A DNA stretch of 64,000 nt from Sphingobacteriales bacterium 16-39-50. Lineage in GTDB: Bacteria; Bacteroidota; Bacteroidia; Sphingobacteriales; Sphingobacteriaceae. Position 1 is the first letter of the stretch, and each line of letters starts with the position of its first letter. The DNA lies in the NCBI GenBank assembly GCA_002257025.1, contig NCHA01000014.1, positions 4,669-68,668 on the forward strand. The letters are read 5' to 3'. This document shows, one piece after another, positions 34,316-62,795 of this stretch. Under the pieces are notes generated by a model. It saw nothing but the letters and a program-made list of their open reading frames with translations, was not told where the DNA came from and made no database searches. The position numbers were made by a program, and so were the translations under genes.

Positions 34316-34461
34316 GTAAAATTCGTCAGTCTTTTTTGGAATGTGACTTACGAATTTACTGAGGCGATATGCAAGATAAATTCGTCAGTCGCATCTTGAT
34401 TGAGCGACCCGATTGCTATCTGGTGACGAAATCTACTTTCCGCTTGGTCAGGTAATTTCGT
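34316..34461. repeat. Cluster of short hairpin (REP-like) repeats
   Basis: AAATTCGTCAGTC occurs twice with inverted partners (ACGAATTTAC, TGACGAAAT) between convergent genes. Confidence 0.5.
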
Positions 34462-59443: not shown

Positions 59444-59630
59444 GAGCTGTCTGATTCTCTTGACTCATGTAATTATCTGTTCGTGCCAAACTCTAAACTG
59501 ACTTTATTGAAATTATAATATTTTCAAGTCTTTCAGTCTAATCTGCCTTTAGTTAAGCATGGCAATGTGAGGTTTATTCAATGTAATACGGCACATTTCC
59601 GACAGTTAAATATCATTAATGCCTTAAAAC

Positions 59631-59664
59631 AAAAAACCCCCAGATTTCTCTGAGGGTTTCTTTT
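59631..59664. terminator. Intrinsic terminator behind the tRNA-Phe 3' remnant
   Basis: A6-CCCCCAGATTTCTCTGAGGGTTTCTTTT hairpin. Confidence 0.65.
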
Positions 59665-59692
59665 GACCTCCTTCGCTAAAGCTACGGTCGCT

Positions 59693-59728
59693 GTGGTACT
59701 AGATCCCGATAGCTATCGTGACGAACCA
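59693..59728 (-). pseudogene. Short tRNA-Phe 3'-end remnant carrying a palindromic insertion
   Basis: GTGGTACT-AG-ATCCCGATAGCTATCGTGAC-GAACCA versus GTGGTACC-AGCTGGAATC-GAACCA in the intact tRNA. Confidence 0.55.
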
Positions 59729-59760
59729 TGCATAATTACATTAACAACAGGTATAAAATC

Positions 59761-59791
59761 AAAAAAGCCTCAGATTTCTCTGAGGCTTTTT
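59761..59791. terminator. Intrinsic terminator of tRNA-Phe
   Basis: A6-GCCTCAGA-TTTC-TCTGAGGC-T5. Confidence 0.85.
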
Positions 59792-59866
59792 GGTGGTACC
59801 AGCTGGAATCGAACCAGCGACACAAGGATTTTCAGTCCTTTGCTCTACCAACTGAGCTATGGTACC
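59791..59866 (-). tRNA. tRNA-Phe(GAA), CCA encoded
   Basis: GGTACCATAGCTCAGTTGGTAGAGC-AAGGA-CTGAAAA-TCCTT...GGTTCGATTCC...GGTACCACCA; TACATTTG promoter element at 59894-59901. Confidence 0.96.
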
Positions 59867-60070
59867 AGACCATACCCGTTTTGTTCGGGACTGCAAATGT
59901 AGTGTCTTTTTTGGTTTAAGAAAATAATATTTGAAAATTTCTGATATGATTTAAGTCCAATATTTAATAATCGTTTTCATGAACAGAGGTAGCAAGATTG
60001 CAATTATCTGAACACCAGCGTTAAACATTGAGTTGAATTTAACTTTGAGGAGTTCTATCAAAACTGAATT

Positions 60071-61090
60071 TTAGTCAAAATATTGAAGTGCGCTTTCAGT
60101 TAAATCCTTTTTAAGTGCAAGTACACTATCTATATTGTCAAGCTCAAACTCCTTTGCCCCAATTAACATTTTCCTCTTTTTACCATTAAAAATCAGAGTG
60201 CAAACATTCTTCCTAATATTACTGTCTACAACGATTATAAAACTGTTCTTTTGATCTTTATAAGAAAGTCTGTCAGAGTGTATCTTTTTATGATGAAGTA
60301 AAATGGTTTTGATAATGTGATAATATTTAAGCTCATCTTCTGTAGTTACAATTCCATTATTCCCACCCTTCCTTGTTTCTTCAATTGTTAACTTATCTAA
60401 TGCTGACTTTAAAGAAAATGAATTAATTAAATCTTTGATTTTAGTTTTTACACTATCATTTGCCCGAATAATTCCCATCCTTGAAGAAATTGCTTTAATT
60501 AAATCATCTGAAGGAGCCATTAATTCCTTAAATAGCGCTTCATCAAATTTGCTTAAAAAATGAGTCTCGTTGGCTTCGTCAATTAATTCCTTTATTTCAA
60601 TTGCACTTCTATGAAACTTAGATAACATTTCATAGTCAGAATCATCATAATTATTTAAGTTGAAAATATAAAAGGGGCTTTTATTAAGAATAGAATCCTT
60701 CTTTTCGGAAGCATAGAATCTATATTCAATTCCGTTCGTAAGAATTCCAACCTTGGCGGAAGATGTATTAACAAAATAATTATTTAATTGTCCAGCATCT
60801 TTATCATTCAGCTTTTTCCCAAATCTCTTACATTCAACTACCATAACTGGCTGTTTTGAATTAATACATATTGCGTAATCAACACGATTGATATCCCTAT
60901 CGCCAAAATCAGCTGAATGCTCAGTGACTAAATCCTTCAATCTGTTATAACCCAGTATTTCCAAAAATGGCTCAATTAAATAACTCCGGGTCTGAGCTTC
61001 ATTTGAACACTTTTGTTCTCCAATAGTTAGCGCTTCAAATTTGCTTAATTCCTTCTTGATATAAGAGACGAGTTGTTTTTTGTTAACCAT
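60071..61090 (-). CDS. Stand-alone type I restriction enzyme HsdR N-terminal (PD-(D/E)xK nuclease) domain protein
   Basis: NEAQTRSYLIEPFLEILGY, RVDYAI, VVECK, QLNNYF, GILTNGIEYRFY; no helicase part; visibly AT-rich. Confidence 0.82.
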   Translation of the reverse strand: MVNKKQLVSYIKKELSKFEALTIGEQKCSNEAQTRSYLIEPFLEILGYNRLKDLVTEHSADFGDRDINRVDYAICINSKQPVMVVECKRFGKKLNDKDAGQLNNYFVNTSSAKVGILTNGIEYRFYASEKKDSILNKSPFYIFNLNNYDDSDYEMLSKFHRSAIEIKELIDEANETHFLSKFDEALFKELMAPSDDLIKAISSRMGIIRANDSVKTKIKDLINSFSLKSALDKLTIEETRKGGNNGIVTTEDELKYYHIIKTILLHHKKIHSDRLSYKDQKNSFIIVVDSNIRKNVCTLIFNGKKRKMLIGAKEFELDNIDSVLALKKDLTESALQYFD

Positions 61091-61161
61091 ATTGAAATAG
61101 GTTTAATTGTAGCTTAATTAAATATAGTAATTTAAATTAAGTAAGGACTTCAATTTCAAGA

Positions 61162-61241
61162 TGGTACCAACTGGTCCCGATAGCTATCGCAACAAACCAG
61201 CGACACAAGGATTTTCTTCCTTTACTCTGTCGAAGAGCTAT
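61162..61241 (-). pseudogene. Decayed tRNA-Phe copy lacking the 5' acceptor strand, with palindromic insertion in the T-arm
   Basis: TGGTACCAACTG-[GTCCCGATAGCTATCGCAAC]-AAACCAGCGACACAAGGATTTTCTTCCTTTACTCT...GAGCTAT aligns with 59794-59860. Confidence 0.75.
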
Positions 61242-61669
61242 TATTCAAGCCCCTCCTCGAACATATCGATGATCACTTTTATTAATTTGTCAGGCTTGTC
61301 TTCCATTTCAAATAAAAGAAATAATTGTCCATCGATACCCTGAATAGTAAGTACTACATTTTTAAGCTCCCCATCTTTGGTATTTAGTGTTGCTTCAATC
61401 AGTGTTTTACCATCTCTGAACGGAATATCCCAGTTACATTCGATTGATTTTATATTACATTCTGTTTTAGATTCATCCCTGACGTTAATTGTAATCAACA
61501 ATTGGTTGATCTCAACCACCGATTTTTCAACTTCTGTGTGGGTTATATTCCCATTCCTATCCATGTGAATGGTCTTTGAAGAAGCCAGGCGTATATTTTT
61601 GCCGCATTGTGCATAGCCTTCATCAACTGCTGAAAACAGGAAATGGATGATTAAGATTAATAATTTCAT
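61241..61669 (-). CDS. Hypothetical secreted protein
   Basis: 142-aa ORF with signal-peptide-like N-terminus; no family recognised. Confidence 0.6.
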   Translation of the reverse strand: MKLLILIIHFLFSAVDEGYAQCGKNIRLASSKTIHMDRNGNITHTEVEKSVVEINQLLITINVRDESKTECNIKSIECNWDIPFRDGKTLIEATLNTKDGELKNVVLTIQGIDGQLFLLFEMEDKPDKLIKVIIDMFEEGLE

Positions 61670-61982: not shown

Positions 61983-62795
61983 ATGAATATCAGCTGGTTA
62001 CTCGACTATAACCCCATATTTTTAGCCTTTATGGCCACGCTTTTTACCTGGGGAGTTACTGCCCTGGGAGCATCATTAGTCTTTTTCTTCAAAACAATAA
62101 ACAGGAGAGTGTTGAACTTAATGCTGGGCTTTGCTGCTGGTGTTATGATTGCGGCCAGTTACTGGTCGCTCCTGGCTCCTGCAATAGAAATGGAGAAGGA
62201 TTCAGAATATCCCTGGCTGCCTGCTGTTACCGGCTTTTTAGCAGGTGGTGCATTTATCCTCCTGATCGATAAAATATTGCCGCACTTGCATTCCAGATTG
62301 TCCATTGATAAATCAGAAGGAATTAAAACCTCCTGGGACAGGAGTATTTTATTAGTGCTGGCAATTACACTACATAATATCCCCGAGGGACTAGCCATAG
62401 GAGTAGCTTTTGGAGCCTTAACCAATAACCCGGACTTGGGTGTACTGTCGGGCGCTGTGGTTCTGGCTATTGGAATTGGCTTGCAAAACTTTCCGGAAGG
62501 CACTGCTGTTTCGGTTCCGTTACGGCGGGAAGGTTTGTCGAGAAGAAAAGCATTTTTCTACGGACAATCATCAGGAATGGTAGAACCACTGGCAGGTGTA
62601 CTCGGAGCTTATCTGGTAGTTACAATCAGTCCATTACTTCCTTACGCCTTATCATTTGCAGCCGGTGCGATGATATTTGTGGTTGTAGAGGAATTGATAC
62701 CTGAGTCCCAATCAGGTCATGAGACTGATCTTTCAACCATTGGAGTTATGATTGGATTTGCATTAATGATGATGCTGGATGTAGCTTTGGGATAG
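61983..62795 (+). CDS. zupT: ZIP-family divalent metal transporter (GufA/ZupT-like)
   Basis: [46 protein letters not shown]. Confidence 0.85.

Follow-up and report, generated by a model that had tools for sequence, protein, structure and literature searches.

A tRNA-Phe locus of Sphingobacteriales bacterium 16-39-50 holds, besides one live gene, two dead copies of that gene, and each dead copy carries in its T-loop a version of the same short palindrome. The locus lies in a 64-kb stretch of contig NCHA01000014.1 (GenBank assembly GCA_002257025.1), the whole of which we refer to as the window. The palindrome, here called P, is in its perfect form the 18-mer TCCCGATAGCTATCGGGA, with a 7-bp stem and an AGCT loop. 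We propose, with a probability of about 0.6, that the duplicate tRNA-Phe copies were colonised long ago by P acting as a small propagating element. This proposal draws on the anatomy of the locus, its conservation in relatives, the occurrence of P across the Bacteroidota and their phages, the footprint that P leaves, the nesting of P within P, and polymorphism between strains.

ARAGORN called two tRNAs in the window, one of them the tRNA-Phe(GAA) of the locus, which is on the minus strand (Table 1). A first-pass annotation, made from the sequence alone, had described three tRNA-Phe sequences, and ARAGORN, Rfam and alignment bear this out: an intact gene, a long remnant upstream of it and a short 3′ remnant downstream. 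Neither remnant has a complete cloverleaf, and neither was called as a tRNA by ARAGORN or by the Rfam tRNA model at E ≤ 10. We compared the copies by pairwise local alignment; a MAFFT alignment of all three misplaced the short remnant. The long remnant has an altered D-loop and has lost one anticodon-loop base and its 5′ acceptor strand, the latter being replaced by the stop-codon end of a 142-aa open reading frame (ORF), and it shares with the intact gene an exact 22-nt block reaching from the anticodon arm to the T-stem. The short remnant retains TGGTTCG of the T-arm and TAGTACCAC of the acceptor 3′ strand, and a gap of 35 nt separates it from the terminator of the intact gene. Of the promoter and terminator that the first-pass annotation had assigned to the intact gene, the terminator is supported by both a terminator scan and RNA folding; the promoter is a putative one, read from a TACATTTG box, and a sigma-70 scan was uninformative. 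A box of the same type, together with a leader hairpin, also precedes the intact gene and the P-bearing copies in relatives. The locus is base-for-base identical in two metagenome-assembled genomes (MAGs) and two run assemblies, and it is therefore not an assembly artefact. The acceptor stem of tRNA-Phe is itself palindromic (GGTACC), and a further, very decayed copy may exist at 59663–59700.

Both remnants hold TCCCGATAGCTATCG at the same position, straight after the T-loop TT(C/T)G, where 18 nt occupy the site at which the live gene has ATT (T-loop nucleotides 58–60) and after which the T-stem 3′ strand resumes. The earlier description of a 20-mer variant with two mismatches in each remnant, at one T-loop position, was accurate; measured against the 18-mer, the short remnant has one mismatch and the long remnant two. 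A 25-nt block is common to both remnants at 88% identity. When the core 15-mer was sought with up to three mismatches, three sites in the 64 kb gave six matches against 0.83 expected, and none of 100 shuffles reached six, which excludes a chance origin of the palindrome matches in the window. A T-stem joined to a perfect P folds as a single coaxial hairpin (−8.8 kcal/mol, z −2.9), and the decayed copies of the window fold weakly. The third site is not tRNA-related: at 34340–34460, a decayed P, ACCCGATTGCTATCTGGT, lies between inverted copies of the repeat GCGGAAAG.AGATTTCGTCA(G/C), a motif that also precedes an intergenic P of relatives (L016:3615–3670).

The same arrangement is present in related genomes, whose contigs we fetched through the 142-aa neighbour (eight homologues, 80–90% identity). 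In all sampled relatives the first dead copy sits at the same ORF junction and carries P at the same T-loop position. P is perfect in the first dead copy of L016–L018, and L013, L014 and L020 hold decayed copies. This shared position, together with the decay of both window copies, indicates that the insertion of P is old, older than these species. L013 and L014 contain full-length tRNA-Phe-like copies with a promoter-like box, an altered D-loop and P, arranged as tandem units of ~274 bp; the P-bearing units precede the intact gene, which in L013 is followed by a 3′ remnant with a perfect P (L013:2850–2895). Tandem whole-gene units plus a 3′ remnant bear out the scars of repeated integration or duplication of which the first-pass annotation had spoken. 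It had also placed the long remnant upstream of the intact gene, opposite to the usual attL/attR (attachment-site) layout; this placing is correct, and duplication of whole gene units, not an inversion of that layout, accounts for it. Several relatives' contigs stop directly after the first dead copy, as expected for an unresolved repeat. One contig from a related population (run X8; window 59630–59760) doubles back by 130 nt, as would fit an extra remnant-plus-terminator unit and copy-number variation of a 130-nt repeat. From these comparisons, the array appears to alter by gain and loss of units.

Relatives also carry P in ordinary intergenic DNA (L016), and the orthologous site in this genome (L001) is P-free. 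An IS110-family transposase gene (L001:1847–2854) lies just past the high end of the window, in the BrkB–Ldh_2 intergenic region where relatives have P; we found no support for an IS110 element that targets P near Ldh_2, as this genome merely lacks P at the site. In L012 (6690–9416), a second P-type tRNA-Phe copy is split in its anticodon arm by an island with DndE-like and AAA genes.

To describe P beyond this locus we used two scans, one for CCCGATAGCTATCGGG in one genome per species (at least 120 records) and one in metagenomes for GGTTC followed by 0–2 bases and P (at least 143 sites). Both totals are lower bounds, and all frequencies given for P come from samples, that is, from the matches listed. 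Among the genome records, 118 of 120 are named Bacteroidota, and they span Flavobacteriales, Chitinophagales, Saprospiraceae, Bacteroidales, Cytophagales and Sphingobacteriales; exact P also occurs in 46 viral contigs. The flanks of P are unrelated from site to site. A T...A pair extends the core to the 18-mer in 81% of the listed sites, and beyond that pair there is no conservation, no complementarity (19–21% at positions 2–3) and no GTAG or CGTC tag. P is found outside long ORFs at 114 of 135 sampled sites, reaches up to five copies per 8 kb in some of the listed genomes, and is mostly single rather than in inverted doublets. At the multi-copy loci L069 and L083 no transposase lies beside or between the paired copies; no genome-wide search was made for RAYTs, the Y1 HUH transposases associated with repetitive extragenic palindromes (REPs). 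No Rfam family covers P (18 loci searched), and a search of open-access text, which is less than the full literature, found no paper describing it, the sole paper with CGATAGCTATCG being an unrelated glioma paper. The motifs of the REP paper and of a Bacteroidetes LexA paper differ from P, and the literature on Bacteroidetes palindromes, on GIY-YIG proteins with tRNA and on tRNA pseudogenes yielded analogues only. P is apparently a mobile, Bacteroidota-wide mini-element, undescribed as far as Rfam and open-access text go.

Three further features of its surroundings were recorded. P often lies within runs of genome-specific direct repeats of 7–8 nt (TACGAATG, GTTCATTA, CACGACTCAC and others; L118:5310–5400, L131, L098, L148, L156, L039). 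In the anticodon-arm region of dead tRNA copies in L143, L184 and L187 there are palindromes with the ends of P (TCCCGA...TCGGGA) and another centre, and these shared ends suggest a family of related mini-palindromes. Finally, the viral loci L275, L285, L301 and L316 share the context cctcacccc[P]ctctcc....ggagagggg, which hints at a larger P-containing unit in some phages.

The sites that P occupies are not random with respect to tRNA. The first-pass annotation had named, as a refutation, a palindrome common genome-wide and without tRNA bias. The outcome is divided: P is common and its flanks are unrelated, but the bias is there, with ~10 of the 135 unbiased sites listed falling inside partial tRNA copies next to an intact gene. 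P is strongly over-represented in such dead copies, even though most sampled copies lie outside tRNA-derived DNA. In the genome scan, the tRNA sites are D-loops in copies of Val, Gly, Pro and Ser tRNAs, the anticodon loop in two Met copies, and positions in both the D- and the T-arm in Ala copies of an rRNA spacer, with P replacing 3–5 loop nucleotides in the partial copies listed. Within tRNA-derived DNA we saw P in non-functional copies alone, adjoining a live gene. The earlier suggestion of a palindrome that targets tRNA T-arms is therefore right as to tRNA and too narrow as to the arm, as P is also found in D- and anticodon loops, at the apexes of terminators and at the apex of P itself, and mostly at sites unrelated to tRNA. 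In the rRNA operon spacer of Neolewinella aquimaris, between tRNA-Ala and 23S rRNA (L101:500–700), tandem dead tRNA-Ala copies carry P-type palindromes in the D-arm and the T-loop.

Most of the T-loop sites from the metagenome scan belong to 3′ remnants of a tRNA whose intact counterpart lies upstream, they cover more than 12 anticodon types, and some form arrays with a period of 84, 85, 114 or 374 nt. About 50 cases allowed a before/after comparison: P replaces nucleotides 58–60, with 3–5 nt lost in nearly all, the intact gene lies 13–540 nt upstream, and the homology of the remnant begins 5–15 nt before P and extends to the tRNA 3′ end. The short remnant of the window, which starts at the T-stem and ends at the acceptor 3′ strand, follows the pattern of these ~50 loci, which is also that of att-scar remnants; together with its second terminator it matches an ORF-less short class (L144, L153, L171, L178, L186, L215, L223).

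P also occurs in other hairpins, and in itself. Of the 135 unbiased sites, 20% are flanked by a stem of 5 bp or more versus 4.7% of controls, and 12% versus 1.5% by one of 6 bp or more; in viral (phage) contigs the tip of a terminator is often made up of P. Copies nested in other copies occur, as in ggttcg-TCCCGA[P]CTATCGGGA, with more in phage contigs, and strains with an identical GIY-YIG protein differ by one nesting level (two in L268, three in L265). At each level P takes the place of TAG, or of the complementary CTA, next to the dyad centre. A perfect palindrome does not result from the nesting, and this speaks for insertion and against palindrome growth. Direct repeats flank 15% of P sites versus 3% of controls; simple target-site duplication was dropped as an explanation, because in tRNA contexts P replaces nucleotides and does not duplicate them.

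The history that we favour would run as follows. Local duplications or insertions, of a kind common at Bacteroidota tRNA genes, would have produced two non-functional tRNA-Phe copies, and since a single copy suffices, the redundant ones would have been free to take up P. P would propagate through Bacteroidota genomes and phages and, on entering stem-loop DNA, would swap ~3 loop nucleotides adjoining one strand of the stem. In a T-arm the product would be a longer coaxial hairpin that ruins the tRNA fold. Such a change to a live tRNA gene would be lethal, which would explain why P is seen only in dead copies. A later event, confined to this lineage, would have put an HSDR_N nuclease-like gene exactly at the 3′ boundary of the first dead copy. 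P was presumably moved in trans by a structure-recognising enzyme, for which small SLX1-like GIY-YIG nucleases are the obvious candidate, and it probably has no host function at this locus.

Several points weigh against this account. The analysis found no de novo insertion of P and no mobilising enzyme, and the 64 kb of this genome hold just two or three copies of P, all decayed. All copies at the locus share the position of P and so probably descend from one insertion, which means that the locus alone is no proof of targeting. Some 80% of the unbiased P sites are without a flanking stem of at least 5 bp, so P prefers a hairpin apex without being bound to it; we found no P-free allele for two phage hairpins and no empty/filled pair for a non-tRNA hairpin. 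Perfect conservation of 18 nt across orders could also reflect a host function, as a protein-binding site or an RNA hairpin.

The weightiest of the rival explanations concerns the small nuclease genes that accompany P elsewhere. Of the 120 T-loop loci listed, 43 have an ORF of ~94 aa that ends just ahead of the P-bearing remnant; it consists of a GIY-YIG catalytic domain (PF01541) and is annotated at source as "GIY-YIG nuclease family protein". A protein-first sample (12 loci in four clusters), which was seeded from P context and so is not fully independent, gave an intact tRNA (Leu-CAA or Thr-TGT) just upstream in nine loci and a dead copy with P starting at the ORF stop codon in all 12, most with P in both the D- and T-loops. 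The ORF and remnant are repeated with a 374-bp period in L181 and L237 and in tandem in L263, L268 and L272. Such cassettes are among the frequent sources of dead tRNA copies and are a candidate for the mobilising activity. It could be argued from this that P is a built-in part of small nuclease cassettes (GIY-YIG elsewhere) that home into tRNA genes, regenerating the tRNA and displacing the old copy. P in the displaced loops would break both the nuclease target and the homology for deletion, and the window would be an old site from which the GIY-YIG gene was lost. The arrays do resemble serial invasions, and the geometry of the window is alike, with an ORF stop codon abutting tRNA position 8. 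We nevertheless consider this unlikely. The ~94-aa ORF lies within 8 kb in just 3 of the 120 unbiased P loci listed and in none of the 46 viral contigs, and an HMM (hidden Markov model) built from 22 GIY-YIG ORFs found no match in the window or in L001–L020, from which it follows that P is not confined to these cassettes. The ORF that abuts the long remnant looks secreted and not like a nuclease, and P is also found in terminators, in itself and in partial 5′ copies that precede tRNAs. A related arrangement, of tRNA-Met, GIY-YIG and P in the Bacteroidota style, is found in L128, labelled as a Variovorax paradoxus MAG and probably mis-binned.

Propagation of P and these nucleases may still belong together. 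P and the 94-aa SLX1-like GIY-YIG protein might form one system, in which the nuclease, recognising DNA in stem-loop or palindromic form, would move P in trans and at tRNA genes would drive a homing-like cycle that regenerates the tRNA and displaces the old copy, which P in its loops then disarms; we offer this tentatively, as a possible but doubtful extension of the proposal.

Less weight still attaches to P as a selected module, either a site bound by a conserved Bacteroidota protein or an RNA hairpin with a part in stabilising or terminating transcripts, with the P-bearing copies serving as functional tRNA-like RNAs. Identity at 18 of 18 positions over many orders would suit this, as would the frequency of P at terminator apexes and between the genes of operons. 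Some P-bearing tRNA-Phe copies in relatives retain a promoter-like box and an intact acceptor stem, and central changes in L013 (CGATGGTTATCG) preserve G–U pairing on the tRNA strand. Repeated origin of the 18-mer by point mutation is impossible, however, so that a copy mechanism would be required anyway, and copies of P decay freely, both in the window and in L013, L014 and L020. The direction of P shows no link to gene direction (in small numbers), no Rfam family takes it in, the dead copies, in which the 5′ acceptor strand or A14 is missing, go unrecognised as tRNA, and a search of sequencing runs turned up the sequence only in DNA metagenomes. We judge a selected role distinctly improbable.

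The remaining rival turns on the DNA next to the tRNA. The HSDR_N gene lies between the long remnant and live tRNA-Phe, where relatives instead have extra P-bearing tRNA units. By blastn, window positions 62000–61168 and 59983–59693 are syntenic with relatives, and the segment between them (61167–59984) has no counterpart in L012–L020; contigs of related populations connect 59942/59980 straight to 61163, skipping it. Judged by these alignments, the segment is a later insertion, which sits precisely where the first dead copy has its 3′ end. Direct repeats of the tRNA 3′ segment bound just the HSDR_N gene and the tRNA itself, which is not the make-up of an integrase element, and there is no integrase or transposase among the ORFs of 52–64 kb. 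In one relative the HSDR_N gene comes after tRNA-Lys and tRNA-Asp, and L005 (4660–5000) and L006–L008, which have an identical HSDR_N homologue, differ by an integrase and HTH_17 element in the T-loop of tRNA-Asp; the scar in L006–L008 is a textbook att scar. A link between the HSDR_N gene and P was rejected, as homologues stand in other contexts with no P-like 12-mer core (≤2 mismatches) nearby. That the tRNA-Phe copies are themselves ordinary attL/attR scars of tyrosine-integrase elements using the tRNA-Phe T-arm, with the palindrome as part of the attachment core, is recommended by the T-stem-to-3′-end extent of the short remnant, the tRNA-Asp insertion and the L012 island cut into a P-type copy, but is highly improbable given that no integrase lies in or near the locus, that the long copy is upstream and nearly full length, that relatives have tandem whole units with promoters, that the same 18-mer sits in D- and anticodon loops of other tRNAs and at non-tRNA sites phylum-wide, and that the L006–L008 scar is without P.

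Table 1. Features of the tRNA-Phe locus and copies of P in the 64-kb window
Feature	Position	Strand	Evidence and remarks
Intact tRNA-Phe, anticodon GAA; sole functional copy at the locus	59791..59866	-	ARAGORN; Rfam tRNA 76 bits, E 5e-16
Intrinsic terminator of intact tRNA-Phe: 13-bp stem, GAAA loop, U-run	59762..59791	-	Terminator scan; RNA fold -19.2 kcal/mol, z -5.9
Candidate Bacteroidetes-type -7 promoter box TACATTTG (TAnnTTTG type), 27 nt upstream of tRNA-Phe	59894..59901	-	Putative; read from the sequence
Long dead tRNA-Phe copy, tRNA positions ~7-73	61162..61241	-	Alignment; orthologue in all sampled relatives
Short 3′ remnant: 5′ strand of T-stem, TTCG, palindrome, decayed 3′ strand of T-stem, 3′ strand of acceptor stem of tRNA-Phe	59693..59728	-	Alignment
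30-nt spacer between short remnant and second terminator; weak likeness to tRNA-Phe 5′ half	59663..59692	-	Local alignment score 12 over 39 nt; may be chance
Second terminator, diverged duplicate of the first	59626..59662	-	88% identity over 34 nt; RNA fold -19.8 kcal/mol, z -4.0
P copy TCCCGATAGCTATCGTGA in short remnant, 1 mismatch to 18-mer, replaces T-loop nt 58-60	59704..59721		Motif scan, alignment
P copy TCCCGATAGCTATCGCAA (+ strand) in long remnant, 2 mismatches, replaces T-loop nt 58-60	61175..61192		Motif scan, alignment; perfect at orthologous site in L016-L018
Third, decayed P copy, 4 mismatches, at centre of inverted repeat of another local motif; not tRNA-related	34407..34424		Motif scan, alignment
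Lineage-specific segment with 339-aa HSDR_N / PD-(D/E)xK nuclease-like gene (60071-61090)	59984..61167	-	Pfam HSDR_N_2 6.8e-12
142-aa ORF, signal-peptide-like N-terminus, no Pfam match	61241..61669	-	Stop codon abuts tRNA position 8 of long remnant; junction same in relatives

P resembles several known systems without matching any of them. REPs and their doublets (REPINs), mobilised by RAYTs and including GTAG- and CGTC-tagged superfamilies (PMC3733652), are likewise short (20–40 nt) extragenic hairpin palindromes, dispersed, with unrelated flanks, sometimes in terminators and decaying by point mutation. They are, however, species- or genus-specific and tagged, whereas P is identical phylum-wide, untagged and mostly single; unlike REPs, P takes the place of nucleotides in the loops of hairpins already there, and copies of it nest in one another. 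The GC clusters of yeast mitochondria, sponge hairpin elements (PMC2800124), Volvox palindromic repeats (PMC2670323) and Rickettsia palindromic elements are, like P, small selfish palindromes that spread within a genome, lie in intergenic DNA and the loops of RNA genes, and can insert in each other. Those are restricted to an organelle or a genus, are longer or more variable and have unrelated sequences; P is bacterial and phylum-wide and, within tRNA-derived DNA, was observed in dead copies alone. The free-standing GIY-YIG homing endonuclease SegB of phages T4 and T6, for which segmental amplification has been reported (PMC13096335), offers a small nuclease gene by the tRNAs of a cluster together with tandem amplification, as at other Bacteroidota P loci. 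The Bacteroidota protein differs in being a ~94-aa catalytic domain only, none is present in the window, and SegB is not known to be tied to any palindrome. The tRNA att remnants of integrative elements are like the locus in being partial 3′ tRNA copies beside a regenerated gene that start in the T-arm and carry the old terminator; unlike them, the locus has no integrase, an upstream near-full-length dead copy, tandem whole-gene units and a foreign palindrome in a loop. The HIP1 palindrome of cyanobacteria, of 8–10 nt, is conserved at phylum level and present in thousands of copies, also inside genes. It shares with P this phylum-level conservation and a spreading mechanism that is unexplained, but HIP1 is not known to be tied to hairpin loops or dead tRNA copies.

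For the window alone the consequences are modest: its surplus tRNA-Phe sequences are old and no longer functional, and the live gene has not been affected. If the proposal is correct, one 18-bp sequence would be copied into DNA stem-loops throughout a bacterial phylum and the phages of that phylum; as a mobile DNA element it would be unusually small and would select its target by structure. This would explain the abundance of dead copies at Bacteroidota tRNA loci and the assembly breaks there, would supply a simple annotation marker for dead tRNA copies, and would offer a testable role for the many small GIY-YIG genes of Bacteroidota that so far lack an explanation. Should P and the GIY-YIG nuclease prove to be one system, it would, at 18 bp, rank among the smallest mobile DNAs described, be targeted by structure, and add a class of tRNA-gene parasites in Bacteroidota and their phages.

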